Part shown: in pieces, positions 10,445 to 45,473 of the stretch
Layout of the letters: each line of letters starts with the position of its first letter
Position numbering within the stretch: the first letter of the stretch is position 1
Source of the DNA: Candidatus Eiseniibacteriota bacterium
GTDB lineage: Bacteria; Eisenbacteria; RBG-16-71-46; SZUA-252
Assembly (NCBI GenBank): GCA_963724515.1
Contig: CAVRUU010000009.1
Coordinates: 63,219 to 127,218, forward strand
DNA length: 64,000 nt
Direction of reading: 5' to 3'
Translations under genes and position numbers: made by a program
The notes under the pieces: model-generated
What the model was told of the DNA's origin: nothing
Seen by the model: the letters and a program-made list of their open reading frames with translations, nothing else
Databases searched by the model: none

Positions 10445-11057
10445 CGGGCGCGCGGTTGTCGCGCTGATCGTCGCCTCGGCACTCCTCGCGGGCTGCTCCC
10501 ATCGCAAGGAGAGCACCGCGCTGGAGTACATGCCGAACATGGCCTATTCGCCGGCCGTGAAGGCCCAGAACGAAGACCCGCTTCACCCAGGCCTTCCGGC
10601 CATGCGCCAGCCCGTTCCGGGCACCGTGCCACGGGGATTCACGCCGTACCGCTACGAGGTCAAGGACAGCCTCCTCGCGCAGCGCGAGCTCGAGAACCCG
10701 CTGCCGCGGACGGCGGACGTGCTGGGAAGGGGTCAGCGTGTCTACATGAACAACTGCGTCGTCTGTCACGGACCTCTGGGAGACGGGCAGGGCTACATCG
10801 TGCCCAAGTTCCCGATGCCTCCCTCGCTCCTCTCGCAGAAGGTGAGCGGATGGCCGGACGGACGGATCTACCACGTCATCACCCGCGGCCAGAACCTCAT
10901 GCCGAGCTACGCCTCGCAGGTCCTCCCCGAGGATCGCTGGGCGGTGATCCACTTCGTCCGCGCGCTCGAGCGGGCCGCGAATCCGGGGCCGGAAGACTTG
11001 AGGGCCGCCGGCATCGGCCCTGACACGACGGCTGCCCCCGCGGGAGGGAAGCCATGA
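10437..11057 (+). CDS. actE: Alternative Complex III monohaem cytochrome c lipoprotein ActE
   Basis: 206 aa. Lipobox LLAGC. Single CVVCH plus a distal Met region (NLMPSY). GTG start overlapping the actD stop. Confidence 0.8.
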   Translation: MSSGRAVVALIVASALLAGCSHRKESTALEYMPNMAYSPAVKAQNEDPLHPGLPAMRQPVPGTVPRGFTPYRYEVKDSLLAQRELENPLPRTADVLGRGQRVYMNNCVVCHGPLGDGQGYIVPKFPMPPSLLSQKVSGWPDGRIYHVITRGQNLMPSYASQVLPEDRWAVIHFVRALERAANPGPEDLRAAGIGPDTTAAPAGGKP

Positions 11058-13266: not shown

Positions 13267-13970
13267 CGCATCGGAACCGCCGGACGCTCCTTCTCCTGGG
13301 ATTTGTCGTCGTCGCCACGGCTCTCTTCGCGAGCCCCGCCGGGGCGTGGCTGCTCCACCCGGCGACCACCATCGCGCGCGACGTGCGATCCCTCTTCTGG
13401 AAGGCCGTCGGGATCACGATGTTCTTCTTCGTTCTGGCGGAGGGGATTCTGCTCGTCGCGATCCTCAAGTTCCGCGCGAAGCCGGGAGTCCCCGCGGCCA
13501 AATGGCACGAAAACATGCGCCTCGAGATCGTCTGGACCGCGATCCCCGCGCTCGCGATGGTCATCCTGTCGGGTCCGACGTTCAGCACGATGAAGTACAT
13601 GGAGACGATCCCCAAATCGGACGTTCAGATCGAGATCATCGGACATCAGTGGTTCTGGGAGTATCGATATCCGAAGTACGGCGTCATCTTCGCGAACGAG
13701 CCGCTCGTGCTGCCGGCGGGCCGGAACGTCTCCGCGAACATCACCTCGATCGACGTCGTGCATAGCTGGTTCGTCCCCGATTTCGGAATCAAGATGGACG
13801 CCAATCCCGGCCGGATCAATCACGTGTGGTTCGACGTGGACAAACCCGGCACCTATGAAGGCCAGTGCGCCGAGCTCTGCGGCGTGTACGCGCAGATGTT
13901 CATCACGGTGAACGTGGTGACGCCGGAAGAATTCGAGCGCTGGATCGAACAGAAGAAGAAGGGAGCCTAG
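13263..13970 (+). CDS. coxB: cytochrome c oxidase subunit II (no fused cytochrome c domain)
   Basis: C-terminal 235 aa of ORF 12813..13970, from MTHRNRR. Two TM segments, then a cupredoxin domain (IGHQWFWEYRY, VVHSWFVPDFG, CAELCG..M). The second CuA histidine is absent (see findings). Confidence 0.85.
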   Translation: MTHRNRRTLLLLGFVVVATALFASPAGAWLLHPATTIARDVRSLFWKAVGITMFFFVLAEGILLVAILKFRAKPGVPAAKWHENMRLEIVWTAIPALAMVILSGPTFSTMKYMETIPKSDVQIEIIGHQWFWEYRYPKYGVIFANEPLVLPAGRNVSANITSIDVVHSWFVPDFGIKMDANPGRINHVWFDVDKPGTYEGQCAELCGVYAQMFITVNVVTPEEFERWIEQKKKGA

Positions 13971-13975
13971 CCAAC

Positions 13976-15600
13976 ATGGAAGCCGGCAGCATCGCCGCCC
14001 GAGCCGCCTCGCATCACGAGGCAGCCGCTCCTCACGCGAAGCCGAGGACGGGCATTCTCAAGTGGCTTCTGACCACCGATCACAAGCTGATCGGCGTCAT
14101 GTACATCTGGCTCGCGTTCTTCTTCTTCAGCATCGCCGGCGCCTTCGCGATGATCATGCGCGCCCAGCTCATGGGGCCCGGCCTCCACATCGTGCATCCC
14201 GAGGTCTACAACCAGATCATGTCCCTCCACGGGACGTTCATGATCTTCTTCTTCACGATTCCGGTCATGGCGGGGCTCGCGAACTACGTGGTCCCGATCC
14301 AGATCGGCGCGCGCGACATGGCCTTCCCGCGGCTCAACGCGGTGAGCTTCTGGATGCTCATCCCCTCGGGCGGGCTCATGCTGGCGAGCATGGTCCTCAA
14401 GGGCGGGGCCGCTGCCGCGGGTTGGACGAGTTATCCGCCGCTGACCGATCGCCAGTTCTCTCCGGGGCCGGGCGTGGATCTGTGGATCCTGGGGCTTCAC
14501 CTCGCGGGAGCCTCCTCGATCCTGGGTGGAATCAATTTCGTCGTGACGATCCTGAACCTGCGCGCTCCGGGCATGAAGCTCTTCAAGATGCCGATGTTCT
14601 GCTGGAACGTCCTGATCACGCAGACGATCATCCTCTTCGCGACCCCGGTTCTCGCGGGGGCGCTCACGATGCTGCTCACCGACCGCATGTTCGGGACGAG
14701 CTTCTTCCATCCTTCCGCGGGCGGGGACCCCGTTCTCTGGCAGCATCTCTTCTGGTTCTATTCGCACCCCGCTGTCTACATCATGGTCCTTCCGGGTATG
14801 GGAATGATCTCCCAGATCCTTCCGGCCTTCTCCGACAAGCATCTCTTCGGTTACAAGGGCATGGTCCTCGCCACGGCGGGGATCGGCTTCATCGGCTACC
14901 TGGTCTGGGGACACCACATGTTCGCGAGCGGAGTCGACTACCGGCTCCGCCTCTTCTTCAGCTTCGCGTCGATGGTGATCGCGGTTCCGACCGGCATCAA
15001 GATCTGGTCCTGGCTCGCGACGATCTGGGGCGGCTCGCTCCGGTTCAAGACGCCCATGCTCTTCGGGCTCGGCTTCATCGCGCTCTTCATCATCGGCGGG
15101 ATCACGGGCGTGTGGCTCGCGCTGGTTCCGTTCGATGTCCAGGTGCATGACACCTACTTCGTCGTCGCGCACCTGCACTACGTGCTCTTCGGTGGCTCCC
15201 TGATGTCGATCATGGCCGGGATGTCTACTGGTTCCCGAAGGGTCTCGGGGAGGCTGTCACCAGCGAGTTCTGGGGCGAGGCCTCCAGCTTCTGGTTCACG
15301 TTCATCGGGATGAACCTCACGTTCATGCCCATGCACCTGATGGGAATGCTCGGGATGCCGCGCCGCATCTACACCTACAAGCCTCAGTTCGCGGACCTGA
15401 ATCACATCGCGAGCGCGGGGGCCGCCGTCCTCGGGGTCGGGATGGCGATCTTCGTGCTCAACATGCTGCTGAGCCTCTGGCGCGGGAAGAAGGCTCCTCC
15501 GGACCCCTGGAACCACACGGACGAGACCCGCACGCTGGAGTGGACGGTCGGCTCACCCCCTCCGGCCGAGAACTTCCACACCATCCCGGTCATCCGCTAG
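13976..15600 (+). pseudogene. coxA: cytochrome c oxidase subunit I, A2-type (YSHPAVY), reading frame broken by a 1-nt deletion near 15224
   Basis: ORF 13865..15313 (from MEAGS at 13976) reads as CoxA up to ..HYVLFGGSLMSIMAGM. The rest (YWFPKGLGEAVTSEFWGEASSFWFTFIGMNLTFMPMH..) continues in the frame of ORF 15310..15600, starting at 15226. Confidence 0.85.
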
Positions 15601-16505
15601 AGAGGTCGGTCACGCGTCTCCCGAGCTTCTTCGTCGCGACGGTGGCGCTCGTCTTCGTTCTGGTCGTGTGGGGTGGGATCGTCCGCCTGACCGGCTCGGG
15701 CCTGGCGATTCCCGACTGGCCGCTGGCGAACGGGAGGTTCATCCCGTCCCCTGAAACGCGGGTCCTGATCGAGTTCACCCACCGCGTGCTGGCGATGATC
15801 GTGGGCCTGGCGACGCTGGGGCTCGCCGTCGCCGTCTACGGGAGCGCTCGCTACCGGCGCGCGCTGGGCGGCCTGATGGCGGCAGCCCTCGTGATCCTCG
15901 CGATCCAGATCTTGATGGGCGGCCGCGTCGTGCTGGAGGAGCTCAAGGTCGACCGGGTCGTCGCGCATCTACTGCTCGCGTTCTTCTTCTTCGGGCTCCT
16001 GCTCCGGATGACCCTCCGGGCGCAGGATGTTGCCCGCGCGGGGGAGGGAGCGGACGCGCTTGCGGGAACCGGCGTCAAGGGCGCCAAGGCGCTCAGGGCC
16101 TGGAGCCACGCCGCGGCTGGGCTCGTGTTCCTCCAGGCGGGTCTCGGAGCTTGGGTCTCATCCTCGGGAGCCGCGCTCGCGTGTCCCGATTTCCCTACCT
16201 GTCACGGCACGTTGTTCCCCAGAATGGAAGGTCTGGTCGGGATCCACTACGCACACCGGCTCGGCGCCTACCTGGTCTTCGCGGCCGTGCTCGGGCTCTC
16301 GCTCCGCGCCGCTTCGGCGCCGCTGCCCCCTCGGGCGCGGTGGCCGCTCCGGCTCGCGGGGGTGTTGGTGTCATTGCAGATCGTTCTCGGGGTCATGAAC
16401 GTGGTCCTGTCGCTGCCTCTCGCGGTCAGCGCGGGGCATCTGGCGACGGCGCTCGCGCTCTTCGGCACACTCCTGGTGGCGAATCATGAGCTTGCACGTC
16501 TCTAG
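15540..16505 (+). CDS. ctaA: haem A synthase (COX15/CtaA family)
   Basis: 8-TM ORF with GGIVRLTGSGL..PDWPL, conserved His residues (EFTHR, VAHLL, YAHRLGAY, GHLA) and CPDFPTCHG in the second half. Start uncertain: ATG 15540 overlaps coxA, and GTG at 15642 is an alternative. Confidence 0.8.
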   Translation: MDGRLTPSGRELPHHPGHPLERSVTRLPSFFVATVALVFVLVVWGGIVRLTGSGLAIPDWPLANGRFIPSPETRVLIEFTHRVLAMIVGLATLGLAVAVYGSARYRRALGGLMAAALVILAIQILMGGRVVLEELKVDRVVAHLLLAFFFFGLLLRMTLRAQDVARAGEGADALAGTGVKGAKALRAWSHAAAGLVFLQAGLGAWVSSSGAALACPDFPTCHGTLFPRMEGLVGIHYAHRLGAYLVFAAVLGLSLRAASAPLPPRARWPLRLAGVLVSLQIVLGVMNVVLSLPLAVSAGHLATALALFGTLLVANHELARL

Positions 16506-17364
16506 CTATATCCAGCTCACCAAGCCGCGGATCGTCCTCCTGGTGCTCGTCACGGCCCTGGCGGCTCTCGTGATGGAAGGCTCGCTGCTCGCCCATCCGG
16601 GCCGGCTCCTGCTCGTGCTCTTCGCGATCACTTTGGTTGCCGGGTCCGCGAACGCCTTCAATCAGTACTTCGAGCGGGACCTGGACGCGCAGATGGCGCG
16701 GACGCGCACGCGGCGGCCGCTCCCGCTGCGGCAGGTGTCGGCGCGAAGCGCGCTCTACTTCGCCGTGGGGATCGGTGCGATCTCGGTCGCGCTGTTATGG
16801 GTGGTGGGGAACGCGCTGAGCGCGCTGCTCGCTCTGGGGACGATCTTGTTCTATGGGTTCGGGTACACGCTCTGGCTCAAGCCACGGACAGTGCACAACA
16901 TCGTCATCGGAGGCGCTGCCGGGGCGATGGGTCCGGTGATCGCATGGGCCGCGGCGAGCGGGGGACTCACGCTCGCGCCGATCCTTCTCTTCCTCGTCAT
17001 CTTCCTGTGGACGCCCCCCCACTTCTGGGCGCTCGCGCTCTGCGTGAAAGAGGACTACCGCGCCGTCAAGATCCCGATGCTGCCCCTCGTGAGGGGGGAC
17101 GCGGAGACCTACCGCCAGATCGAGATCTACAGCGTGGGCTTGGTCGCGCTCACCCTGGCGATGCCGTTCCTCCGCACGGGCGGACTCGTCTACGCGCTGC
17201 TGGCGCTCGGGCTCGGCTGCGTGTTCGTCTGGAAGGCCGTCCGGGCGCGCAGACTCGCCACCGTGCGCTCGGCTTGGGAGGTGTTCGGATTCTCGATCCT
17301 CTACCTCTTCGTCCTCTTCCTCGGGCTGATCGCCGACGCGATCTGGCGCATCCCGATTCTCTAG
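16486..17364 (+). CDS. ctaB: protohaem IX farnesyltransferase (haem O synthase)
   Basis: 292 aa, YIQLTKPRIVLL.., UbiA-family motifs (NQYFERDLDAQMARTRTRRPL). Overlaps the ctaA end. Confidence 0.9.
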   Translation: MSLHVSSYIQLTKPRIVLLVLVTALAALVMEGSLLAHPGRLLLVLFAITLVAGSANAFNQYFERDLDAQMARTRTRRPLPLRQVSARSALYFAVGIGAISVALLWVVGNALSALLALGTILFYGFGYTLWLKPRTVHNIVIGGAAGAMGPVIAWAAASGGLTLAPILLFLVIFLWTPPHFWALALCVKEDYRAVKIPMLPLVRGDAETYRQIEIYSVGLVALTLAMPFLRTGGLVYALLALGLGCVFVWKAVRARRLATVRSAWEVFGFSILYLFVLFLGLIADAIWRIPIL

Positions 17365-28197: not shown

Positions 28198-28695
28198 ATG
28201 ACGACCGCTCCAACGCCACCACGCAGCACGGCCGCCTTGCGCGCCGAGCACGAGAAACTTCTCGGCAGCCTTTACGCGATCTCCGAACGCGTCGAAAAGC
28301 TCGGGGAGCAGCCGCTGCCTCAGCAAATGGGGCTGGCGCGCGAGGTGCTCGATTTCGTTCGGAAGCAGGTCGCGCCGCACGCTCGCGCCGAGGAGTTCAC
28401 GCTCTATCCGGCCGCGGACTGGGCGGCAGGGGAAGGCTCCCGCGTCACCGAGGTGCCCCGGTTCGAGCACCAGCTCGTCATCCGCCGCTGTGAGGCTCTC
28501 GACAAGGCGATCCAGGAGGGATCCTCGGCCGGCAGGCTCATGCATCTCTGCTACTCGATCCTGGGATTGGTCGCGGCGCACTTCGTCGCGACCGAGGAAG
28601 TACTCCTGCCGTACCTCGACAAGGCCTTCGACCAGGCCCGCTTCGAAAAAGAGGTTCTGAGCCCGCTCCGCGTCCGGCGCGCGGAACGCACCTAG
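28198..28695 (+). CDS. hemerythrin-like (HHE cation-binding) domain protein
   Basis: 165 aa with spaced His/Glu motifs (LRAEHEKL, HARAEEFTLYP, FEHQ, AHFVATEEVLLPYL) typical of the hemerythrin HHE family. Assignment by motif pattern only. Confidence 0.55.
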   Translation: MTTAPTPPRSTAALRAEHEKLLGSLYAISERVEKLGEQPLPQQMGLAREVLDFVRKQVAPHARAEEFTLYPAADWAAGEGSRVTEVPRFEHQLVIRRCEALDKAIQEGSSAGRLMHLCYSILGLVAAHFVATEEVLLPYLDKAFDQARFEKEVLSPLRVRRAERT

Positions 28696-30797
28696 CGCGG
28701 CGCGGACGTCCCCGCGGCGCCCCGTCCCTTTCCGTCCTCACCCTTCCCGCCGGACAGCCACTCGTCGAATGATTTGAAGTCGTAATCCCGGCCCAGGAAA
28801 TTGTGCACCAGCTTCCCGGCCGGAGCCGATCCGCCAGCCGCGAGCACGGTGTCGCGATAGCGCTTGGCAATGGCCGGATCGAGCAGATTCGACTTGTCGA
28901 ACTCGCCGAACATGTCCTTCGAGATCACGAGCGACCACATGTACGTGTAGTAGATCGCCGAGTAGCCGTCGAGATGACCGAACGCGGCCTGGAAGTGCGT
29001 GTCGGGCATGGGCGGGTAGGGCGTGTACGCGGGCTCCAGCTCACGCAGGATCTTGTCGGTGTTCACTTCCTTGGACGGGCGGTTGTAGTAGTGGAGCGAG
29101 ATCGCCGAATAGAGGTTCTGGTAGGCGATCGACGTTGCGCGCCCGAACCAATCGGCGGCGCGCATGCGCTCCACCATCTCGGTCGGGATCGTCTCGCCGG
29201 CCTCATTCTTGGCGAACGTCTGCAGCACCCCGGGGTTCCAGCACCACTCCTCCAGCATCTGCGAAGGCGCCTCGACGAAGTCCCACTCCGTCGCGATGCC
29301 CGAGATGTTCTCCCAGGGCTGGTGCCCGCCGAACACGCCGTGGAGCAGGTGGCCGAACTCGTGGAAGAACGTCACGACATCGCCGTGCTCCATCAGCCCG
29401 GGATCGCCTTCCTTCCCGCCGGCGAAATTGCAGATAAGCGCCCCTTCCGGAATCTGAATTCCCTCGACCCCGTTCCGGATGCCGAAATTCGCGGCATGGT
29501 TGTATTTCCCCGGCCGCGGATGGAGGTCCAGGTAGAAGCGTCCGATCATGCTGCCGTCCTCCCACACCTCGTACGCTTCGACGCTCGGATCCCATACGTC
29601 CGCGTTCGCGATCCGCTTGTACGTGATGCCGAACATCTTGGCGGTCGCGCTCAGGATGCCTTCCTTCACCTTTTCGAAGGGGAAATAGGGGCGTGCCTGC
29701 TGCGCGTCGAAATTGTAGTCGCGCTTGCGGATCAGCTCCCCGTAATAGCGGCGATCCCACTGATTCACCGTCTTCGCTTCCGGATCATCCACGCGCTTGC
29801 TCTTGAGATAGACCTCGTATTCTTCCTTCGAGCGCTTCAAGGTCAAACCGCGCAGCCGCTCGATGAAGGAATCCACGTTCTTGTCGTTCCCGATCATCTT
29901 GTCCCGCGTGATGTATTCGGCCCACGTCTTGAACCCGAGGATCCTCGCAAGCTCGTAGCGCTTGGCGATCAGCCGATCCAGGACCGGCATGTTGCCAGGG
30001 TACGCGCGGTTCAGGAACTCGTGGAGCAGGCGCTCGCGCACATCCGACTTCTTGGCGTAGCTCATGACCGGGAAGAAATCCGGGTACTCGATGCTGATCG
30101 TGATCTTCCCGTCCGGTCCGGGCGGATGCGCCTTGACGTAATCTTCCGGCAGGCCGTCCAGATCGGCGGCGCTCTCGAGGGTGATCGTGCGGGAGTCGTT
30201 CCGGATGTTCTTCTCGAAGTCCTGTCCGGTTGCCACCAGCTCCTCACGCATCGCGGCGATCTTCTTGCGCGTGGCTTCATCCTTGTCCACTCCGGAGAGC
30301 CGGAAATCGCGAAGCGCCTTCTCGACCGCGAAGCGTGTGGTCGGATCCAGGCCCTTGAGGTCGAGCGCGCTCAGCGCGTCATATACGCCGCGGTTCAGCC
30401 CGAGATCGTTCAGGAACTTGGTCGAGGCGCGGGTTTCTTCCTCGGCCACCGTGCGCACCGTGGAATCGGGATGGACCGACTCGATCAGGTTCGCGGCGTA
30501 CGCGGCGTTGTCGGCATGGAGCAGCGCTTCGTTGTATGGTGCCAGCGTGTTCTCGACCGTCCGGGGGCCCTTGGCTTGCAGGAGGCGGTCGAGCGCCTGG
30601 CTTGCGATCTTGAGCTCGGCCTCCGCCAGGGCTCGGAAGCCCGCGGAATCGGGGCGCCCGGTCCAGAAGGGCGGCGCTACCGGAGTGGCGGACTCCGCCG
30701 CTGAGACGCGCGCGGGCAGAGCGCCCGCCACGAGCGCGAACAGGGCGATGACGGCCGCTGAAAGGAAAGGCAGGTTCCGGATTCGATACGAGCGCAC
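28692..30797 (-). CDS. M3-family oligopeptidase (thimet/Dcp-like), secreted
   Basis: 701 aa. Signal peptide (LSAAVIALFALVAGALPARVSA). HEFGH zinc motif (FFHEFGHLLHGVFGG) and downstream EAPSQ. Confidence 0.9.
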   Translation of the reverse strand: MRSYRIRNLPFLSAAVIALFALVAGALPARVSAAESATPVAPPFWTGRPDSAGFRALAEAELKIASQALDRLLQAKGPRTVENTLAPYNEALLHADNAAYAANLIESVHPDSTVRTVAEEETRASTKFLNDLGLNRGVYDALSALDLKGLDPTTRFAVEKALRDFRLSGVDKDEATRKKIAAMREELVATGQDFEKNIRNDSRTITLESAADLDGLPEDYVKAHPPGPDGKITISIEYPDFFPVMSYAKKSDVRERLLHEFLNRAYPGNMPVLDRLIAKRYELARILGFKTWAEYITRDKMIGNDKNVDSFIERLRGLTLKRSKEEYEVYLKSKRVDDPEAKTVNQWDRRYYGELIRKRDYNFDAQQARPYFPFEKVKEGILSATAKMFGITYKRIANADVWDPSVEAYEVWEDGSMIGRFYLDLHPRPGKYNHAANFGIRNGVEGIQIPEGALICNFAGGKEGDPGLMEHGDVVTFFHEFGHLLHGVFGGHQPWENISGIATEWDFVEAPSQMLEEWCWNPGVLQTFAKNEAGETIPTEMVERMRAADWFGRATSIAYQNLYSAISLHYYNRPSKEVNTDKILRELEPAYTPYPPMPDTHFQAAFGHLDGYSAIYYTYMWSLVISKDMFGEFDKSNLLDPAIAKRYRDTVLAAGGSAPAGKLVHNFLGRDYDFKSFDEWLSGGKGEDGKGRGAAGTSAPR

Positions 30798-36865: not shown

Positions 36866-38921
36866 CTAGTCCTGCCCCGCCAACCACGCGTCGAACTGCC
36901 TGAAGTCGTAGTCGCGTCCGAGAAAATCGTGAACCATGTCCCGCGCGGGACGAGTGCCTCCGGGTGCCAGCACCACGTCGCGATATCGCGTCGCGACGGT
37001 GGGGCTCAGTAGATCGGCCTTGTCGAACGCGCTGAACATGTCCTTCGAGATCACGAGCGACCACATGTAGGTGTAGTAGACCGCCGAGTAGCCGTCCAGG
37101 TGGCCGAACGAAGTCTGCATGTGCGAATCGGGCATCGGCGGCACCGGCGTGTACCTGGGCTCGAGGTCCGCGACGATCGCGTCGGTCACGACCTGGCTCG
37201 GCGGCCGGTTGTAGATATTCAGGGACACCGCCGAGTAGAACGCCTGGGTCGCCGTCGAGAGCGCGCGGCCGAACGCGTCCGCGCGGCGCATCTTCTTCAC
37301 CAGCTCCACTGGAATCGGCTCGCCGGTCTTGTAGTGCTTCGCGAAGGTCTGCAAGACTTCGGGATCCCACACCCACTCCTCGAGCATCTGGGAGGGGGCC
37401 TCGACGAAGTCGCGCTCGGTGGCCGTCCCCGCCACGGGCTCCCAGCGGCCCTGGCCGCCGAAGATCGCGTGGAGCAGATGGCCGAACTCGTGGAAGAACG
37501 TCTGGACGTCGGAGTGCTCCATGAGCCCCGGCTCGCCTGGCTTTCCGCCGGGGAAATTGCAGACGAGCGCGTGCTCGGGAATCTGGGTCCCCTTCACGCC
37601 CTGTCGGATGGTGAACTTCGCCGCGTGGTTGAACTTCCCGGGCCGCGGGTGGAGATCGAAGAAGAAACGCCCGATGAGCTTCGGCCCCTCGTAGACCTCG
37701 TACGCCTCGACCGACGGGTCCCAGACCGGGGCGTTCGTCACGCGCTTGTACCGAACACCGAACATCTTCGAGGTCACGTCGAGAACGCCCTGTTTCACGT
37801 TGTCGAAGGCGAAATACGGCCGCGCCTCCTGCGGATCGTAGTCGAAGTCGCGCTTCCGGATCAGGCGTCCGTAGTAGGAGACCTCCCAGCGGCTCACCTG
37901 AGTCGCGGAAGGATCGTCCTCCTGCCTGCGCTTCAGGTAGACCGCGTACTCCTCCTGGGCGCGCTTCATCGTGGTGTCGTTCAGGCGGGTGATGAAATCG
38001 GCCGCGTTCTTCGCGGTGCCGATCATCTTGTCTTCGGTGATGTAGTCCGCCCAGGTGTCATAGCCCAGGGTCCTCGCGACGCGGTAGCGCTTGGCAAGCA
38101 GCGAGTCGAGCACCGCGATGTTCGCGGGATAGGCGCGGTTCAGCGCTTCGTGCATGAGGCGCCTTCTGAGCTCGCCGCTCTTGGCGTAGCGGACCACGGG
38201 GATGTAGTCCGGGGTCTCGATGCTCAGCGTGACCTTGCCGTCGGCGCCGGGAGCATGCCCCTTGATGTAGTCTTCCGGCAGGCCCTCCAGCTCGGCGCTC
38301 TCCACCTGGATCTTCCGCGAGTCGGTCCGGATGTTCCGATCCCAGTCCTGGCCGGTCTTCACCAGCTCTTCGTAAATCGCGGCGATCTCCTTCCGCGTCG
38401 CCTCGTCCTTGTCCACGCCGGCGCGCCTGAAATCGCGGAGCGTGCGCATCATGAAATACCGGGTGGCGGGGTCCGACTTCGAGACGTCCACGCTCACCAG
38501 CGCGTCGTAGATGGCCCGGTTCAGGCTGAGGTCATCGAGGAATTTGCTGGCGGTCTGAGAGATTGCCTCCGCGGAGGATCGGAAGGCGGAGTCCGGGTGG
38601 ACCGCCTCGAGCAGGTGAGCCTGATAGGCGGCGTTCTCCCCGTGGGTCATCGCCTCGTTATAGACCGCGATCGTATTGTCGATCGTGCGCGGTCCCTTGA
38701 CCGCGAGGATCCGGTCGATCGCGCCTTGAGCCCTCTTGAGCTCCGCCTCGGAGGAGGCGCGGAAGGCGGCTGCGTTCGGATGTCCCGTGAAGAAGGCCGG
38801 AGCCGCGCGGCGAGCCGGCGCTCCTTTGGCTCCCGACGGCCGGGGACGTGAGGAGCACGAGGGCCAGCGTTGCGAGAAGCGCTTGAAGGAATGCGGCGCG
38901 ATGCGATCGGGATGAAGACAC
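36866..38921 (-). pseudogene. second M3-family oligopeptidase (paralogue of 28692..30797), with a frameshift between signal peptide and mature domain
   Basis: ORF 36866..38650 carries HEFGH (FFHEFGHLLHAIFGG). Its frame stays open and homologous upstream (..APAFFTGHPNAAAFRASSEAELKRAQGAIDRILAVKGPRTIDNTIAVYNEAM) but has no start codon. The GGAGG-GTG start (38921) and signal peptide lie in the frame of ORF 38658..38990. The frame switch is near 38821-38840. Confidence 0.8.
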
Positions 38922-38996: not shown

Positions 38997-40652
38997 CTAG
39001 AAGTTGAGGCCGAGCTCGGCCGCGAGCTCCTTGCCGGGACCTCCGTCGCGCCATTCGTGCGCGAGGGCGGCCCACAGACCGCCCGGGGAGTGATAGTCGA
39101 GCCCCGCGCGGACCCAGCGGGACCGGTAGGATGGCGTGGGAGTCGCGTCCAAGTCCGTGTTCGTTCCGCCAATCCCACCCGCGAGATCGATCTGGCTCCA
39201 GGGGCCGAGCCGGACCAGGAGTGAGGCGTCCCCGTTCACGCCGCTGAAGTGTTCGGCGTTGAAGCCCGTCACATGGAGGCCGCCCGATAGCTCCTTCAAG
39301 CCGAGCCGGCTGCCCGTGAGGCCCGTGTCCCAGGAACTGAAGATCTCGCCATCCCGGTCCCGGCGTCTGAGGTCTCCGCCCACGCGGAGCGCACAAGCGC
39401 GGGGAAGGCTCGCGCGCAGCGAGGCGTGCACGCCGGAGAAGCGATCGAGCATGATGGTGGAGGGCGCGAGGAGGTGCTCGGGGAGGAGCACGGCCCGCCG
39501 GGAGTCCGCGCTCACGGCGAGTGAAAGGCCGCGGCGCACGGGGAAATTGCCGCCCAGAGACAGGGCAGTCCACCCGAAGGCCGGCTCCCCGTGATCCCGC
39601 TTCCAACGTGGATTGAGATCGATCTCTGCGCTCTGGTAGAAGCTCGCGCCGGCTCCGTGTGTGTAATCGGCGCGTTCCATCACGTACTGGCGCCGGGTGA
39701 GCGTCGTGTCGCGCGAGTACACCCCCGCGACCAGGGCATGCCACCGGCGCGGAGCGAATGAGGCACGCGTTCCCGCCTCGACGTAGGCCCCAATCTGAAG
39801 CCCGCCCTCGGCAAAGCCGGCCGTTGCGAGATTCGCGCCCCGTCCGCCGCTCAATCCCGCGCCGAGCGACGGGCGGGGGCGCCAGTGGATGGCGGCGCCG
39901 TCCGTGTACCCGATTCCCTCGAGCCGCCGGGGCAGGATGCGCCCCGCCTCGACGTCGAGCCTTCCGCCCTGCGTCCGGTACCCGGCCGAAACCTCGTAGA
40001 TTCGAAGCTTCGACTCGCGGATCTCGGTCCCGGGAAGATCGGACACCGCCCGAATCACCGGGCGCGTGGCGCGCACGCGGAGCGTGGTCTGCTCGAGGGC
40101 TCTGCCCGACCACCGGACATCTCCGAGGAGGGAAGGGTTCTCGTACGTGCCGCCCGGGTCCGAAGTTCTCGTATAGAGGCTCGTGATCTGGCCGTGAACA
40201 CGTCCGGAACCGGACCCGAGGCCCCACCCCATCTCCCCGGACGGCTTCGCCCCGGAAACCGAGAGCCCTGTCGCGGGCGCTCGAGAGCTATCCGGGTAGG
40301 CGGCGGGTGTGGCGGTGGTGTCCTTCGGCGTGGCCGGAGAAAACACGGCGGTATCGCCGGCGCGCACGTCCTGCACAGACGATTCGACGCTGCACCCGGC
40401 GGAGTGTTCCGCAACGAAGACCACGGTTAGCCGCGCGATCTCCTTGCCGTTTCGCGTCACGGTCAGGCCCGCCCCCTCGGTCAGGCCCGCCGCGCGCCCT
40501 TGGTCGAGGTATACGTTGGACGCCGAGACGTACTGCACGCGCGCTGTAGCCGCCGAGGCGTCGCGCGGCCCGAGCGCCGCGGCGGCACAGAGCAGGAGCG
40601 CGAACGCCCGCGCTCCGCGCCGGCCCGCCGATGCCCGCGCGCCGTTACGCAC
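38997..40652 (-). CDS. putative outer-membrane beta-barrel protein (porin-like partner of the multihaem cytochromes)
   Basis: C-terminal part of ORF 38997..41687. GTG at 40652 overlaps the upstream stop (GTGCGTAA). Signal peptide ..AFALLLCAAAALGPRDASA. Alternating-hydrophobic, Gly/Arg/Tyr-rich sequence ending ..ELAAELGLNF (terminal Phe). Confidence 0.6.
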   Translation of the reverse strand: MRNGARASAGRRGARAFALLLCAAAALGPRDASAATARVQYVSASNVYLDQGRAAGLTEGAGLTVTRNGKEIARLTVVFVAEHSAGCSVESSVQDVRAGDTAVFSPATPKDTTATPAAYPDSSRAPATGLSVSGAKPSGEMGWGLGSGSGRVHGQITSLYTRTSDPGGTYENPSLLGDVRWSGRALEQTTLRVRATRPVIRAVSDLPGTEIRESKLRIYEVSAGYRTQGGRLDVEAGRILPRRLEGIGYTDGAAIHWRPRPSLGAGLSGGRGANLATAGFAEGGLQIGAYVEAGTRASFAPRRWHALVAGVYSRDTTLTRRQYVMERADYTHGAGASFYQSAEIDLNPRWKRDHGEPAFGWTALSLGGNFPVRRGLSLAVSADSRRAVLLPEHLLAPSTIMLDRFSGVHASLRASLPRACALRVGGDLRRRDRDGEIFSSWDTGLTGSRLGLKELSGGLHVTGFNAEHFSGVNGDASLLVRLGPWSQIDLAGGIGGTNTDLDATPTPSYRSRWVRAGLDYHSPGGLWAALAHEWRDGGPGKELAAELGLNF

Positions 40653-41730
40653 GGCGGTGACAGCTGTAGCAGGCGGAGCTGGCATAGACGTACCCCGAGC
40701 GACCCGTGTGCTGCGCATCGGTGCTGGCCTGGTTGTGCTCGTGGCACGAGAGACAGGTGAAGTCGGCGTAGGTCGCGCTGTTGGAATGGCAATCGGCGCA
40801 CGTGGTCCACTTGCCCTGATGCCTGCCCGAGTAGATGCGGAAGTAGAGGTTGTCGTGATCGAGATTCGCGGGACGCCAGGCCGTCGTGTTGTGGCAGGTC
40901 GCGCACGTCGTGGGATAGCCGGCCGCCGTGTGGTTCGGGTTTGCCGTCGCTGCGTAGTCCGCCTGATGGCACGAGTAGCAGTCGCGCGGGGTCCCGGAGT
41001 AACCGCCGCCCACGTGGCACCGCTCGCAGGCCACCGCCGCGTGCGCCCCCGTGAGCGGGAACCCGGTGAGCGCGTGGTTGAATCCCGCGCCGCCCCATCG
41101 GATCCGTCCCGGATCGTGGCATGCCTCGCAGAGCGTGGAGAAGCCGGCGGAGGCGTGGTTCGGAGTCTGGGTCGCGGCGTAGATCGACGCATGGCACGGG
41201 TAGCAGGCGCGCGAGAGCGGCGTGCGGTTCTCCTCTCCCGCGCCGACGTGGCAGCGGGCGCACTCGACGAGCGCGTGCATGCCGCGGAGCGGAAACCCCG
41301 TGCGGGCGTGCTGCGACACCGCCTGCGAGCGGTTCGTCCACCCGCGCGGAACGTGACAATCCTGGCAGCGGGTTCCCACCCGCCCTTCGTGCACGTCGTG
41401 GTGGCAATCGTTGCAGCTCGTGGCGACTCTCGCGAACTCGAGCGATTTGTGACATCCCACGCAATCCGCGGACGCGTGCTTTCCGATGAGGTCGAAGCCG
41501 GTGCTCGCGTGGCGGAAGAGGAGCGGCCTCCGCAGCTTGCTCCAGGATTTCGCCGTGTGGCACGCCTCGCACTCCGTCTTGAGCGCGCCATGAGGGTTGG
41601 CCACGGTCGGAGCGGCGGGCCGTTCGCGGGCCGCCGTCCCCGCGGTTGCGCCCTGCGGAGCGGCGGCGAGCGCGGCGAGAATCGCAAGGCAGGTCATCGG
41701 GCGCGCGAGGAAAGCGACGGCTCTCTTCAT
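40645..41730 (-). CDS. multihaem cytochrome c, 13 CxxCH motifs
   Basis: 361 aa. Signal peptide. I count 13 CxxCH. Repeated H..TGFPL.G.H....C..CH modules (cytochrome c7/c3-like). ATGA overlap with the upstream gene. Confidence 0.9.
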   Translation of the reverse strand: MKRAVAFLARPMTCLAILAALAAAPQGATAGTAARERPAAPTVANPHGALKTECEACHTAKSWSKLRRPLLFRHASTGFDLIGKHASADCVGCHKSLEFARVATSCNDCHHDVHEGRVGTRCQDCHVPRGWTNRSQAVSQHARTGFPLRGMHALVECARCHVGAGEENRTPLSRACYPCHASIYAATQTPNHASAGFSTLCEACHDPGRIRWGGAGFNHALTGFPLTGAHAAVACERCHVGGGYSGTPRDCYSCHQADYAATANPNHTAAGYPTTCATCHNTTAWRPANLDHDNLYFRIYSGRHQGKWTTCADCHSNSATYADFTCLSCHEHNQASTDAQHTGRSGYVYASSACYSCHRRA

Positions 41731-43217
41731 GTCCGGCTCCGATCGGGCGCGGGGCGTGTGGCGTGGCAGGCGCGACAGGCCGTGTCAAGGGGACGGTATC
41801 GGACCGTGCGGCGGCCGCCGATCACCTGGAGCTTGTGGCAGGCCGCACAGACCGAGCGCGCGTGAGCGCCCTCGAGCGGGAATCGGGTCTTCTCGTGATT
41901 GAACGCCGCGCCGCGCCAGGCCCGCTCGCCGTGACAACGGTCGCAGCCGGTTCCGCCGCGCGCGGCGGCGAATTGTCCGGCGTGCTCGTCTTCGTGGCAA
42001 TCGGCGCACGCGACCGCCTTGAGCCGGAACTGGACGCTCCCGGGCGCCGCGTCCTTGGCGGTCGGACGATGGCACGAGACGCATGCCACCGCGAGGTGCG
42101 CCCCCCGCAGCTGGAACCTCGTCTTTTCGTGCTCCTGGAAGCCGAAGCGAGCGGGGGTGAAGCCATCGACGGAGTGGCACGCCTGGCACGCTCCGGCGCT
42201 CGCGCTCTTGGCGAGCTGCCCTCCGTGCCGGTCGCTGTGGCAATCGACGCATCGCGCGAAGGCGATCCGCTTCTTGAAGTTCCCTTCGACGTGGCAGCTC
42301 GCGCACGCGACGCGGCGATGAAGGCCGAGCAGGGGATAGTTCGTGCGGTCGTGGTTGAAGGCTCCGGGCGCGATCGCGCTCCAGCCCGCGGTCGTGTGGC
42401 AGCGTGTGCAGTCCGCCCCGTAGCGATTCCGGTGAGGGTCGGTGTGGCAGTCGACGCAGACGCCGTGGGGAAGCGGGTGATATCGGACGAACGCGCTCGC
42501 CGCGCCGGCCGGCGTGGCCGAGCCCTCCTCGGTGACGCTGTGATGGCAGCGCTCGCATCGAACCTGCGCATGGAGGCCGGTGAGCGGGTACCCCGTCTTG
42601 TCGTGATCGATCGAGACCGGCTTCCACGCGAGGGCGTTGTGGCATGAGGCGCAGTCCCCTTCGGCCACCCGGGCCGCGAATTGTCCGCGGTGGACGTCGG
42701 TATGGCAGTCGGCGCATCGGGTCGAGAGCCCGAGATAGGTGCTGTCGGATTTCAGAGTTGTGGCGGCGCGGACATCGGCCGCGCGGACGAGCGCGGGCGC
42801 GTGGCACGTGCGGCAGCGGACCGCGGCGTGCTTGCCTTCGAGCGGGTAGCCCGTGAGCGAATGGTCGAACGAATCGGGTCCGCCGGGCCAGGACACGAGG
42901 ACTGCCTCGCGGCCTCCGTGCTCGGCGTGGCAGGGAGCGCACAGCGTCGCGCGGCTCTTGTCCCGTCCGTGATAACCGCGCCCGGCCCGGATCCGGACGG
43001 CGAGCTCCTTGTGGCACGCGAGGCAGCGCACCGCCGTGGTGGATCGCTTGGGCTCATGGCAGTCGAGGCAGGCGGTCGTCTTGTCGATCGCGGCGTGGGA
43101 TTGCGAGAGCGGGCCGGGCGAGAACTGGGCGCGGGCGGTCGCGGGTGCGATCATGAGTGCCGCCGCGGCTGCGGTCCAGAGGATCGCGCGGTCATGTCTA
43201 GCCCTGCGGCAGCGCAT
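41727..43217 (-). CDS. multihaem cytochrome c, 17 CxxCH motifs
   Basis: 496 aa. Signal peptide ending ATARA-Q. I count 17 CxxCH. Repeated F.H..T.YPL.G.H..V.C..CH modules. Start overlaps the upstream gene by 20 nt. Confidence 0.9.
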   Translation of the reverse strand: MRCRRARHDRAILWTAAAAALMIAPATARAQFSPGPLSQSHAAIDKTTACLDCHEPKRSTTAVRCLACHKELAVRIRAGRGYHGRDKSRATLCAPCHAEHGGREAVLVSWPGGPDSFDHSLTGYPLEGKHAAVRCRTCHAPALVRAADVRAATTLKSDSTYLGLSTRCADCHTDVHRGQFAARVAEGDCASCHNALAWKPVSIDHDKTGYPLTGLHAQVRCERCHHSVTEEGSATPAGAASAFVRYHPLPHGVCVDCHTDPHRNRYGADCTRCHTTAGWSAIAPGAFNHDRTNYPLLGLHRRVACASCHVEGNFKKRIAFARCVDCHSDRHGGQLAKSASAGACQACHSVDGFTPARFGFQEHEKTRFQLRGAHLAVACVSCHRPTAKDAAPGSVQFRLKAVACADCHEDEHAGQFAAARGGTGCDRCHGERAWRGAAFNHEKTRFPLEGAHARSVCAACHKLQVIGGRRTVRYRPLDTACRACHATRPAPDRSRT

Positions 43218-44082
43218 AGCCGAGCCATATCGCGACCCCGATGTGGACGCCCATCATGAGGAACAGCACGATCGTGAACGGCTTGTGGATCGCGTGCCAG
43301 TAGTGGAACAGGGCCGATGTCTGGCGCAGGAACGCCCGGCGCCGCTCGAGGAGAAGCCGCCGTCTCGTGAGCGAGCGGACGCGCCGCGCCTCGGCGCGCC
43401 CCAGATGGCGGACGGCTCCCGGCTGGCGCGCGAGGCCCAGGGCCCCGACCATCCGGAGAAGGTCCTGACCCAAAAGGTAGAAGAGGCTCCCCAGGAGGCT
43501 CATGCCCTCCGCGCGGTCGGCCCCGGAGCGGCGCCGCAGGCTCTGGAGATCGGAGACCGCGAACCCGTGCCGCTCGGTCAGCTCACGGTCCAGCTCCTCG
43601 AGCTCGAGCGTCAGGGTCTCGGAATCCTGGTCCGCGACCGAGAGAGCGCCGCCGACCTGGCGCAGCAGGTAGTAGCCCACGAAGCCGCTCAGCATCACGC
43701 AGACCATCGCCCAGTACCCGATCGCGATCGCCCCCGTGATCTTGAAGCTGGAATGGAGCGTGATCATCGCGGGCCCGGCGATGCCGCAGAAGATGTGGGC
43801 GTTGAGCCATCGGTTCAGCAAACCGACGCGACGGAGCCACGGGACCCGCTTCCGAACCGAATAGAGGAGGAGCAGCAGGATGAACCCGGTCCCGACATAC
43901 CCATAGAGCAGCCCCAGCCCGCCGTTCGGCCGGAGCGCCGCGTGCGCGGGGGCGTGGAGCCGTTCCGCGAGGCCGAGGCGGTAGTATGGGAAACCGTAAT
44001 AGAAGAGACAGACCCAGGCCGTGAAGGAGACGAGGTAGAGCGCGACCCGCACCCGGGAGCGCGGCACTGATGCGCGTGGCAT
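43198..44082 (-). CDS. 5-TM membrane protein with two H-x13-H helices (putative dihaem b-type transmembrane electron carrier)
   Basis: ORF 43198..44178. ATG at 44082 is preceded by GAGG. Hydrophobic segments at about residues 44-64, 86-107, 121-142, 148-172 and 296-322 (ORF numbering). His128/His142 and His298/His312 each have 13 intervening residues. Confidence 0.55.
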   Translation of the reverse strand: MPRASVPRSRVRVALYLVSFTAWVCLFYYGFPYYRLGLAERLHAPAHAALRPNGGLGLLYGYVGTGFILLLLLYSVRKRVPWLRRVGLLNRWLNAHIFCGIAGPAMITLHSSFKITGAIAIGYWAMVCVMLSGFVGYYLLRQVGGALSVADQDSETLTLELEELDRELTERHGFAVSDLQSLRRRSGADRAEGMSLLGSLFYLLGQDLLRMVGALGLARQPGAVRHLGRAEARRVRSLTRRRLLLERRRAFLRQTSALFHYWHAIHKPFTIVLFLMMGVHIGVAIWLGYALPQG

Positions 44083-44138
44083 CGGACGCCTCGCGGGGGA
44101 GGGCGCTGAGGCGGGCAGGACCGCGCGCGCGACGCCGC

Positions 44139-45473
44139 TCACGCGGACCTCGAAGCCGGCGCGGCGCGGGGGGCGCATGGCGGCTCGCCGTAGTAGGTCT
44201 TCGTCGCGACGCCGATCTTCTCGAGGAAGCTCGTGGGGAGATCGCCTCCGATCAGGACGAAGACGTGATCATTGGGAATCCACTGCTCGCCCGAGTCCGT
44301 CCGGAGCAGGACGCGGTCCTTCTCGATGAGGCGCGCCTCCGACCGGAGCACGACCTGAAGCGATGGTCCGCGAAGCTCCTCCAGCCGTGCCAGATTTGCC
44401 TCCGCGATCCGGGTGAAGCGGTCGCCGCGGTAGCTCAGCACCACCTGGGCGCCGGCGTCCGCGAGCGAGATCGCGGCCTCGAGCGCGCTGTTGCCCCCTC
44501 CCACGACCAGCGCGCGCCGCGCCGCGAATTGTTCGGGCTCGATGAGGCGATACGCGACCTTGGAGCTCTCCTCCCCGGGGATGCCCAGCTTGCGGGGACT
44601 GCCGCGTCTTCCGGTCGCGAGAACGACGCGGCGCGCGAGGGTCTCGCCGCCGCTCCACTTCAAGCGGAACACGTCTCCGACGCGTTCGATTTCCGAGACG
44701 CGGACGCCTCCGCGCAGCTGGAGATCCGCACGGCCAACCACGTGGCTCCAGTACTCCACGAGGTGCTCCTTGCTGATCTCGCGAAAGTCCATCGTTCCGA
44801 CGATCGGGAGTTTGACCGGGGCGGTCATCACGAGCTTGCGGCGCGGATAATGATGGACGCTTCCACCCAGTCCCTCCTGATCGAGGATGAGATGGCTCAT
44901 CCCACGCTCCCTGCACGCCAGCGCGGCGGCGATGCCGGCGGGACCCGCCCCTACGATCGCGACCTCCACCGCGCTCGCGTGGCGGCCGGGGCTCGCGCTC
45001 AGCCCGCGGACGACGTCGATTCCCTGGGAGACGGCCGTTCGAATGAGACCGAACCCCCCGAGCTCGCCGGCCACGTAAATCCCGCGGACGCTGGTCTGAA
45101 GGTCCTCGCCGAGAAGGGGCACGAGCACGCCTCGTGTGGCGGTGCCGAAGACGAGCTCGATCGCCAGCGTCGGGCAGACGGTCTTGCAGCGGCCGTGTCC
45201 CACGCAGTGGGACGCGTTCACGAGTCGGGCGCGCCCGTCGATGACGCGAAGGACGTCCTCCTCGGGGCAGGCCTCGACGCAGCTGCCGCATCCGATGCAG
45301 AGGGATGGATCGATGCGCGGGTGAAGGGACGGCGGATCGTCGAAGCCCATGGCTCCGGCGCGCGCGACCGCCCTCCTCGCGCTGCGCTGGCGCAGGTATT
45401 CGAATCCCACGCCGGCCGCAGCCACGGAGGCGAGAGACGCGACGACCGAGGCCGTCGTGAAATCAATCGTCAC
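44139..45473 (-). CDS. membrane-anchored 2x[4Fe-4S] ferredoxin domain fused to an FAD/NAD(P)-dependent (thioredoxin-reductase-like) oxidoreductase
   Basis: 444 aa. GTG start preceded by AAGGAG. N-terminal TM followed by an Arg-rich stretch. CIGCGSCVEACP and CVGHGRCKTVCP. Dinucleotide motifs VAIVGAGPAG and LVVGGGNSALE. Confidence 0.8.
   Translation of the reverse strand: MTIDFTTASVVASLASVAAAGVGFEYLRQRSARRAVARAGAMGFDDPPSLHPRIDPSLCIGCGSCVEACPEEDVLRVIDGRARLVNASHCVGHGRCKTVCPTLAIELVFGTATRGVLVPLLGEDLQTSVRGIYVAGELGGFGLIRTAVSQGIDVVRGLSASPGRHASAVEVAIVGAGPAGIAAALACRERGMSHLILDQEGLGGSVHHYPRRKLVMTAPVKLPIVGTMDFREISKEHLVEYWSHVVGRADLQLRGGVRVSEIERVGDVFRLKWSGGETLARRVVLATGRRGSPRKLGIPGEESSKVAYRLIEPEQFAARRALVVGGGNSALEAAISLADAGAQVVLSYRGDRFTRIAEANLARLEELRGPSLQVVLRSEARLIEKDRVLLRTDSGEQWIPNDHVFVLIGGDLPTSFLEKIGVATKTYYGEPPCAPRAAPASRSA

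Follow-up and report, generated by a model that had tools for sequence, protein, structure and literature searches.

Do electrons that leave a Gram-negative cell through multihaem cytochromes have to pass the quinone pool, or can they be taken directly from the cytoplasm? The question is raised by five tightly packed genes, all on the minus strand, at positions 38997-45473 of a 64,000-nucleotide stretch (hereafter the window; contig CAVRUU010000009.1, Candidatus Eiseniibacteriota bacterium), which has a G+C content of ~67% and whose closest homologues carry names pointing to Candidatus Eisenbacteria. To our knowledge, every well-studied Gram-negative route of extracellular electron transfer (Mtr, Geobacter Pcc and Ext, Mto and Pio) takes its electrons from the quinone pool, and this entry point is the presumed site of energy conservation and of redox-potential sensing. 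The five genes, here called g1 to g5 in their order along the minus strand, encode a membrane-anchored ferredoxin-flavoprotein, a five-transmembrane inner-membrane protein, a 17-haem and a 13-haem cytochrome c and an outer-membrane beta-barrel, a content that a preliminary description of the locus had read from the DNA and that open reading frames (ORFs), Pfam matches, haem counts and structure models bore out. On balance, and with only somewhat more confidence than doubt, we propose that they constitute one envelope-spanning conduit, which would draw on cytoplasmic pyridine nucleotide and not on the quinone pool.

Conservation of the five-part set and exchange of its cytoplasmic partner

A scan of the GTDB species representatives, with one genome per species, returned at least 576 relatives of g2, and the best 80 loci were analysed by scoring all six-frame ORFs against profiles of g1, g2 and g5 and by counting CXXCH motifs. 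Of these 80, the 45 in which the g2 homologue is followed by at least 9 kb of sequence were informative: 43 of them carry g1, 44 carry g5, all 45 carry at least two multihaem cytochromes, and 42 carry all five parts, while at least two of the three incomplete loci are ones where the locus or the contig ends beside the cluster. The expectation that the five genes co-occur as a unit is thus confirmed, and because the same five parts recur in this way the gene arrangement is far beyond chance. The best 80 loci come from Eisenbacteria, Krumholzibacteriia, Calditrichota, Zixibacteria, Ignavibacteria, Thermoanaerobaculia and other Acidobacteriota, KSB1 and Marinimicrobia, and also from Gemmatimonadota, Planctomycetota, Latescibacterota, Margulisbacteria and one Prosthecochloris metagenome-assembled genome (MAG; locus L075).

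At least four gene orders occur, the commonest being g2, cytochromes, g5, g1 (2-C-5-1, 30 loci), followed by 1-2-C-5 (14 loci and the window), 2-1-C-5 and others; locus L002 has the same order as the window, and loci L001 and L004 are rearranged, with an opposite-strand gene in between. Among 129 genes flanking 37 of the clusters, no family was found above 6/129, with iron uptake, cytochrome maturation and regulators considered. Since the content is kept while the order is shuffled and the flanks are unrelated, selection would act on the set and not on its neighbourhood, and these comparisons provide strong evidence that the five-part set is a self-contained functional module. The flanking set also holds two proteins with a Ferric_reduct domain (E 1e-13) and four type-IX-secretion C-terminal sorting domains, which are too few to interpret.

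The whole module is also present in a cultured bacterium, the Bacteroidota member Emticicia oligotrophica DSM 17448, on the 100-kb plasmid pEMTOL02 (locus L088, NC_018749.1 78197-89995). There EMTOL_RS21090 corresponds to g2 (259 bits), RS21095 to g1 (482 bits) and RS21110 to g5 (102 bits), and the cytochromes RS21100 and RS21105 have 23 and 40 haems, respectively. The module lies directly after ccsA, a cytochrome c biogenesis gene, and near plasmid replication and partition genes, and its plasmid location suggests horizontal movement.

The cytoplasmic member of the set can be replaced by an unrelated protein. On a plasmid of Methylophaga pinxianii (locus L086, NZ_CP095734.1 17153-35398), a g2 homologue lies between a reductase and a cytochrome c gene, and hhalign matched the g2 profile to this membrane protein over nearly its full length with a probability of 99.5% (E 2e-23). 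The reductase (612 residues; FAD_binding_6, NAD_binding_1 and Fer2) is of the FNR type with a 2Fe-2S domain and is non-homologous to g1, the cytochrome c (254 residues) has multihaem-type c7/c3 Pfam matches, and no barrel gene is annotated in the 18-kb stretch. This cluster, a minimal form of the conduit genes, is flanked by a heavy-metal P-type ATPase/DUF411 block and by a full ccm cytochrome maturation operon. At locus L005, a small 2Fe-2S ferredoxin (Fer2) gene stands immediately upstream of the g2 homologue, and in another relative (P0257) an N-terminal Fer2 domain is fused to the g2-type membrane domain itself; wherever context is available, a periplasmic multihaem cytochrome accompanies these membrane proteins with swapped partners.

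Differing NAD(P)H or iron-sulfur modules, combined with one type of membrane protein and a multihaem cytochrome, are the pattern expected of a transmembrane wire. The non-homologous replacement of the cytoplasmic reductase is the strongest argument for a cytoplasmic, quinone-independent feed, which the presence of both g1 and a g2-type protein in 43 of the 45 loci supports as well. The preliminary description had suggested that electrons could leave the cytoplasm without passing through quinones; this now has comparative support from the near-constant g1, the Methylophaga exchange and the fused Fer2 domain, while the electron path itself is a proposal.

Gene layout and the five components

The five genes share four junctions, three of them overlaps: 20 nt between g2 and g3, 4 nt (ATGA) between g3 and g4 and, between g4 and g5, 8 nt if g5 starts at GTG 40652 or 41 nt if it starts at ATG 40685. 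The g1/g2 junction depends on the start of g2, with three options, namely a 40-nt overlap (ATG 44178), a 4-nt GTGA overlap (GTG 44142) or a 56-nt gap (ATG 44082). Starting from the in-frame GTG 44142, g2 has 314 residues, the same length as its close homologues, and the GTGA shared by the g1 stop and the g2 start would be a typical case of translational coupling, which speaks for a link between g1 and g2; at locus L002, g1 and g2 likewise overlap by 4 nt. The tight packing given in the preliminary description therefore stands, but its count of five boundaries, four of them overlapping, does not, and the GTG 44142 option had been missed. An 896-residue ORF at 38997-41687 (minus strand) was rejected as a gene, being a high-GC read-through that runs through g4 in another frame and then through g5; many long spurious ORFs overlap the real genes across the region.

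The first gene, g1 (44139..45473, minus strand; 444 residues), encodes the proposed NAD(P)H-oxidising input module, as judged from Pfam matches, solved relatives and conservation. Its hydrophobic anchor helix (45399..45461, residues ~5-25) is followed by the basic stretch RQRSARRAVAR, and a hydrophobic segment occupies this position in 46 of 50 family members. No twin-arginine motif precedes the anchor helix and no export signal was found in g1, so that the redox domains would be cytoplasmic and tethered to the membrane by the N-terminal helix. The ferredoxin domain (45144..45326, residues ~50-110) is an Fer4 dicluster domain with seven cysteines in the motifs CxxCxxCxxxCP and CxxHxxCxxxCP, all of which are invariant (C59, C62, C65, C69, C90, C96 and C100). 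The second cysteine of the second motif is never present in the 61 of 63 relatives in which this motif could be located, its place being taken by H (47), T (6), A (5), S (2) or I (1), which suggests one [4Fe-4S] cluster plus one that is either [3Fe-4S] or ligated by histidine.

The flavoprotein domain of g1 (44190..44966, residues 170-428) is of the FAD/NAD(P)H type with two dinucleotide-binding regions, and Pfam assigns Pyr_redox_3 at E 9e-43, besides Pyr_redox_2 and Fer4 family matches. GGGNSA followed by S/T-x-R-x5-R is present in 57 of 63 relatives and resembles the NADPH site of thioredoxin reductase, an analogy that suggests the use of NADPH. The closest solved structures are YpdA/Bdr and TrxR-type ferredoxin-NADP reductases, but YpdA/Bdr is a stand-alone soluble flavoprotein, whereas g1 has a membrane anchor and an Fer4 domain. 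Against TIGR04018, the YpdA/Bdr equivalog model, g1 scores 159 bits with the cut-off at 339.9, which places it outside that family, and its scores are far under the YpdA and TrxR family cut-offs in general; nor does g1 hold a redox-active CxxC disulfide motif. An assignment as a bacillithiol or thioredoxin disulfide reductase was rejected on these grounds, together with the Fer4 fusion and the membrane anchor.

The second gene, g2 (43198..44178, minus strand, from ATG 44178, GTG 44142 or ATG 44082; residues are numbered from ATG 44082), encodes the inner-membrane protein that we propose as a di-haem b transmembrane wire. Its AlphaFold2 model (pLDDT 91) has five transmembrane (TM) helices, with a helical insert separating TM4 from TM5. 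TM3 carries W92-x3-H96-x13-H110 (43753..43809), TM4 carries S132-G-x-x-G136 (43675..43689) and TM5 carries W262-H263-x2-H266-x13-H280 (43243..43299). Across 104 aligned members, Y74, L93, H96, G100, H110, W124, M126, S132, G133, W262, H263 and H266 are invariant, H280 is conserved in at least 90%, and G136 is invariant in a 20-sequence set and present in at least 90% of the 104; both W-x3-H-x13-H motifs plus SGXXG occur in 100 of the 104. The four histidines singled out in the preliminary description are therefore kept in the homologues. The N-terminus, the TM2-TM3 loop and the TM4-TM5 insert are enriched in basic residues, a distribution that places these parts in the cytoplasm; in the model, H96 and H266 (with H263) would then be close to the inner membrane face, and H110 and H280 close to the outer one. 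Two stacked b haems would be expected to have such a geometry, and we predict that g2 binds them.

The family to which g2 belongs is large and uncurated: a word-seeded search returned 124 relatives, nearly all annotated as hypothetical, and a profile search of 1.84 billion representatives returned 4751 clusters at E ≤1e-3, 950 of which reached E ≤1e-30. In Pfam and NCBIfam g2 matches no family, a Foldseek search of the confident model against the PDB gave no meaningful match (best E 0.87), and the profile of the 104 relatives found nothing relevant among all PDB sequences. Sub-threshold Pfam matches do occur among the 104 members, namely DUF4405 in 89, Ni_hydr_CYTB (prokaryotic cytochrome b561) in 58 and Ferric_reduct in 37; the matches to the first two all lie under the curated cut-off (best E 2e-5), and the best Ferric_reduct match has E 6e-4. 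In the window g2, the DUF4405 match spans the TM5 motif only (residues 260-286), and no match to Ferric_reduct (PF01794) was found, which gives no support for membership of that family; neither PF14358 nor PF01292 was reached at the curated threshold by the g2 family. With hhalign, the g2 profile gave a probability of 0.3% for E. coli MsrQ and of 0.5% for E. coli YodB. These comparisons suggest a remote relationship of g2 to the DUF4405/b561 clan, short of membership, and on its sequence g2 is best described as a family of its own with a di-haem-b-like motif pattern. The labels of NOX/ferric reductase and of cytochrome b561 were dropped for g2 in view of the sub-threshold Pfam matches and the null hhalign and Foldseek results. 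The most distant relative examined (P0120, 31% identity; locus L003, a Bacteriovoracaceae MAG) has no cytochrome, reductase or barrel neighbours, and such most distant members of the family may have another partner or role.

Two multihaem cytochromes c follow, both with signal peptides and with spare histidines sufficient for bis-His ligation. The first, g3 (41727..43217, minus strand; 496 residues, Sec signal peptide), has 17 CXXCH motifs and 38 histidines, i.e. 29 residues per haem, and is the proposed periplasm-spanning wire; the second, g4 (40645..41730, minus strand; 361 residues), has 13 CXXCH motifs and 28 histidines and is the proposed distal or outer cytochrome. Pfam Cytochrome_C7 covers five stretches of g3 and three of g4, in keeping with c7-type repeat modules, and g3 has no match among PDB sequences. 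In related loci, the cytochrome adjacent to g2 mostly has 17-23 haems, and the second one ranges from 13 haems, as in the window, up to 85. Enlarged forms of the second cytochrome were seen at locus L077 (12639-18851, 85 CXXCH; an Eisenbacteria MAG), locus L016 (11524-17031, 73 CXXCH; a Zixibacteria MAG) and locus L015 (6395-11554, 67 CXXCH; an unclassified bacterial MAG), and this protein, built of a repeated unit, seems to grow and shrink by tandem duplication. At locus L005 (contig_147263, long-read-derived), CXXCH-rich ORFs with 27, 14, 6 and 5 motifs overlap in different frames after the g2 homologue; they are likely the product of frameshift errors that split one very large cytochrome gene.

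The last gene, g5 (38997..40652, minus strand; start at GTG 40652 or ATG 40685, ~551-562 residues), encodes a protein with a signal peptide and a C-terminus ending in GLNF, the final F being invariant among relatives. A transmembrane barrel fold had been set beforehand as a test of the conduit, and the models agree with it. The AlphaFold2 model was built on 20 sequences, a third homologue search with the g5 alignment having added only two; its mean pLDDT is 75.7, and from residue ~150 to the C-terminus it is all beta with pLDDT mostly at 87-96 in 10-residue blocks. Foldseek against the PDB listed 50 matches, and all 50 are outer-membrane barrels, each at probability 1.0, comprising 24-strand PapC/FimD ushers, TonB-dependent receptors and porins. 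The barrel domain (39000..40205, residues ~150-551) has ~24 strands in the DSSP strand list, and no relative of g5 was found in Pfam, NCBIfam or PDB sequences. Ahead of the barrel lies a small beta domain (40338..40520, residues ~45-105) that contains a GD motif and a nearly invariant Cys, is modelled with low confidence and is presumed to be periplasmic. Besides the window, it was noted in P0136, P0137 and L001:5363-7324; it is doubled in some relatives, and one relative carries a precomputed match to PF16538, which we take to be FlgT_C. One possibility is that this domain docks a periplasmic cytochrome.

Relation to known electron conduits

The closest counterparts are the PCC3 and PCC4 porin-cytochrome clusters, which were predicted from genomes (He, Barco, Emerson & Roden 2017, Front Microbiol 8:1584; PMC5566968) and extended later (Hoover et al., 2023). 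PCC3 consists of a porin, a periplasmic cytochrome of ~20 haems, a second, extracellular cytochrome and a membrane protein of ~300 residues, while PCC4 combines a porin with three periplasmic multihaem cytochromes (He et al., 2017). In both, the inner-membrane protein (IMP) spans the membrane with five TM helices, bears SGXXG on TM4 and, on TM3 as well as on TM5, W-x3-H-x13-H, and was proposed to be a quinone-active cytochrome b; in PCC4 subgroup II, an Fe-S gene lies upstream of it (He et al., 2017). By description and motifs, g2 has every feature of this IMP, the barrel g5 stands in the same cluster, and g3, with its 17 haems at 29 residues per haem, resembles the ~20-haem periplasmic cytochrome of low residue-to-haem ratio. 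The second cytochrome of PCC3 is extracellular, and its candidate counterpart here is g4, which has 13 haems and a signal peptide and whose equivalents in related loci have 13-85 haems. The same study also tabulated porin-less clusters of the form "MHC + IMP + other redox protein", MHC being a multihaem cytochrome (He et al., 2017, Suppl. Table 6), and the Methylophaga cluster has this arrangement.

Two differences set the present system apart from PCC3. First, a fifth, near-obligatory partner is present here, a membrane-anchored protein that combines Fer4 with a thioredoxin-reductase-like flavoprotein. Second, PCC3 was described in Proteobacteria, and later work still gives it as four genes and calls it functionally unverified, whereas the loci reported here belong to the FCB group, Acidobacteriota and other phyla. 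Therefore, the claim of the preliminary description that the five-part combination is undescribed falls for four of the parts, which match the predicted PCC3/PCC4 (He et al., 2017), and holds, as far as the searchable literature goes, for the g1-type subunit; it is the NAD(P)H-type flavo-iron-sulfur partner that is the new element. In the searchable literature, which is incomplete, no description was found of the Fer4-flavoprotein subunit, of the five-part set or of its FCB and Acidobacteriota distribution, and no characterised pathway was found for homologous clusters, an assignment that the preliminary description had named as refuting its reading.

Better-studied conduits are more distant. 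MtrCAB of Shewanella, MtoAB and PioAB resemble the present system in that the gene for a large barrel of the outer membrane stands together with those for a multihaem cytochrome of the periplasm and for an outer cytochrome. However, g5 has no match to any Pfam or NCBIfam porin model, the haem counts are 17 + 13 here versus 10 + 10 there, and against TIGR03508 (DmsE/MtrA decahaem; cut-off 192) g3 and g4 reach only 47 and 19 bits. No NapC/NirT (CymA-type) quinol dehydrogenase was found among the five proteins; the cut-off is 311 bits, and the best score is the 16 bits of g4. The Geobacter OmaB-OmbB-OmcB conduit has an octahaem OmaB and a dodecahaem lipoprotein OmcB, in contrast to the 17 + 13 haems and the missing lipobox here; OmbB-like porins have been reported in Ignavibacteria and Caldithrix, and a distant link between g5 and OmbB is conceivable. 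The repeated c7-type modules of g3 and g4 recall the Geobacter polymer-of-c7 cytochromes (GSU1996), although g3 has no detectable sequence relative of solved structure, and the haem counts and operon context differ.

With the eukaryotic NOX/FRE enzymes and the bacterial MsrQ-Fre pair, a two-component NOX-like system, the present one would share a cytoplasmic NAD(P)H flavoprotein that feeds two stacked b haems, each ligated by one TM3 and one TM5 histidine, and sends electrons to the far side of the membrane, and the histidine pairs on TM3 and TM5, 13 residues apart, are present in g2 as H96/H110 and H266/H280. However, g2 has five TM helices instead of six, g1 is thioredoxin-reductase-like with a ferredoxin domain and not FNR-like, and the acceptor here would be a multihaem cytochrome chain instead of O2, Fe(III) or MsrP. 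The resemblance is functional, and homology was unsupported in the tests; of the split NADPH-oxidase or ferric-reductase likeness first drawn for this locus, the functional part thus survives, while the sub-threshold Pfam matches, the hhalign probability, the null Foldseek search and the non-FNR character of g1 leave common descent unsupported. In the Hmc and Tmc complexes of sulfate reducers, a membrane cytochrome b connects a multihaem cytochrome c in the periplasm with an FeS protein in the cytoplasm, with no obligatory quinone step. Their subunits belong to unrelated families, and matches to the HmcA model reach 22-31 bits against a cut-off of 400; they also have no outer-membrane module, electrons there usually flow inward to sulfate reduction, and their cytoplasmic subunit is HdrD-like, whereas an NAD(P)H flavoprotein occupies this place here.

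Proposed source and direction of the electrons and what they would imply

Based on these comparisons, we propose the following path. First, NAD(P)H would reduce the FAD of g1, tethered at the inner membrane face by its N-terminal helix, and the electrons would cross the two iron-sulfur clusters of g1. Upon contact of g1 with g2, they could pass to a cytoplasmic-side haem b (H96 with H266, or with H263) and then to a periplasmic-side haem b (H110 with H280), from which the 17-haem g3 would bridge the periplasm. Finally, they would exit through or at the ~24-strand barrel g5, with the 13-haem g4 as the probable distal element, to an Fe(III) or Mn(IV) mineral, humic material or a partner cell as the putative final acceptor.

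NAD(P)H lies at about -320 mV, and electron export of the NOX type is electrogenic and depolarising. Outward flow is favoured because it would be downhill from this potential and aided by the inside-negative membrane potential. Since such outward flow builds no proton-motive force, the role would be that of an electron vent or of reductive metal mobilisation; likely, the conduit either restores NAD(P)+ in a heterotroph that lives on peptides when oxygen is limiting, or mobilises metals reductively. The window holds two genes for M3-family oligopeptidases within 10 kb, at 28692-30797 and 36866-38650 (both minus strand), the second directly downstream of g5, and they fit the peptide-degrading lifestyle reported for Eisenbacteria. 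A respiratory block at 4891-17364 (plus strand) encodes a pentahaem ActA-like cytochrome, an ActB-like molybdopterin/Fe-S protein (1034 residues), an NrfD-type ActC and ActD, together with c-type cytochromes, haem-copper oxidase subunit I (13865-15313), CtaA and CtaB, that is, an alternative complex III plus cytochrome oxidase, which gives the host a quinone-based aerobic chain. From these genes, the host appears to degrade peptides under aerobic or microaerobic conditions, and it could turn to an electron vent when oxygen is scarce.

Several points weigh against a feed from the cytoplasm, and most of them would suit a quinone-coupled conduit of the PCC3/PCC4 type, in which g2 is a quinol dehydrogenase or quinone reductase and g1 an accessory protein for redox repair, regulation or cofactor maintenance. 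For membrane proteins with the same motif signature, the published model sits at the quinone pool and proposes quinone exchange (He et al., 2017; PMC5566968), and the proteobacterial PCC3 clusters are described as four genes without g1. A quinone site in g2 would be compatible with its sequence, the commonest gene order puts g1 at the far end of the operon and away from g2 in 30 loci, and the quinone-based chain of the host, with its alternative complex III and oxidase, could also feed the conduit. Moreover, the loss of membrane potential that electron export from NAD(P)H entails would make the conduit a poor choice for respiration alone; the prediction that g2 binds haem b comes from motifs; and with no solved relative of g2 found by Foldseek or by the PDB profile search, the haem geometry has no template. 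An accessory role is, however, hard to square with unrelated NAD(P)H/FeS reductases, or fused or adjacent Fer2 domains, filling the place of g1 elsewhere, and the near-constant presence of g1 and its membrane anchor argue in the same direction. We therefore regard the quinone-coupled explanation as unlikely, though it deserves to be taken seriously.

The same electron path from NAD(P)H outward could also serve assimilation, the system being then a bacterial counterpart of the eukaryotic NADPH-dependent ferric reductases that dissolve Fe(III) for uptake. The NADPH-type chemistry suggested by the thioredoxin-reductase-like 2'-phosphate-site motif would agree with such a role, as would the aerobic, oligotrophic life of Emticicia and, anecdotally, iron-uptake neighbours at two loci, namely FeoAB with a TonB-dependent receptor at L004 and a sigma/FecR/TonB-dependent receptor set at L001. 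But no iron-uptake family recurs among the 129 genes flanking 37 loci, and up to 85 haems seems excessive for this purpose, so that we consider an assimilatory role improbable.

Still less probable is inward flow, by which electrons from Fe(II), Mn(II), reduced minerals, a cathode or a partner cell would reach NAD(P)+ via g2 and g1. It was in iron-oxidising bacteria that PCC3 and PCC4 were first found, with uptake as their proposed role; multihaem conduits of the Mtr and Mto kind can run in both directions; and one locus (L075) comes from the green sulfur bacterium Prosthecochloris. For donors of the Fe(II) type, however, transfer into a negative-inside cell and up to -320 mV would be doubly uphill, with no energy-coupling component among the five genes; the carriers are mostly FCB and Acidobacteriota lineages of heterotroph type, and the host of the window is rich in peptidases and has an aerobic chain. 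That the five genes are no functional unit and merely adjoin by chance in a gene-dense genome is effectively refuted by junction overlaps of 4-20 nt and by the recurrence of the set in 42 of 45 loci from many phyla with shuffled order and unrelated flanks, the only point in its favour being that a simple scan for promoters and terminators around the cluster found none that were clear and did no better than on shuffled controls, a result uninformative for this phylum.

The reading that we prefer, a conduit fed from cytoplasmic NAD(P)H, can be extended, with confidence a little short of even, to a hitherto unrecognised class of quinone-independent, five-protein NAD(P)H:extracellular-acceptor oxidoreductases, in which the ~20-haem periplasmic cytochrome would hand electrons to an outer cytochrome of 13-85 haems lying inside or next to the ~24-strand barrel. 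This class would be the main route of extracellular electron transfer in many uncultured FCB-group, Acidobacteriota and related lineages and would turn the PCC3/PCC4-type membrane protein, so far taken for a quinone enzyme, into a wire that faces the cytoplasm. If true, a feed from NAD(P)H would explain the inner-membrane end of the PCC3/PCC4 systems, assign a role to an extensive family of membrane proteins that is still uncurated (at least 4751 sequence clusters) and change the genome-based prediction of the capacity for extracellular electron transfer. The cultured carrier Emticicia oligotrophica DSM 17448 makes the question directly testable. A conduit fed from NAD(P)H would have a different bioenergetic design, that of an electron vent rather than a respiratory chain, and as lineages that abound in sediments, soils and aquifers (Ignavibacteria, Zixibacteria, Calditrichota, Thermoanaerobaculia and Eisenbacteria) are among its carriers, it could matter for the cycling of iron, manganese and humic material.

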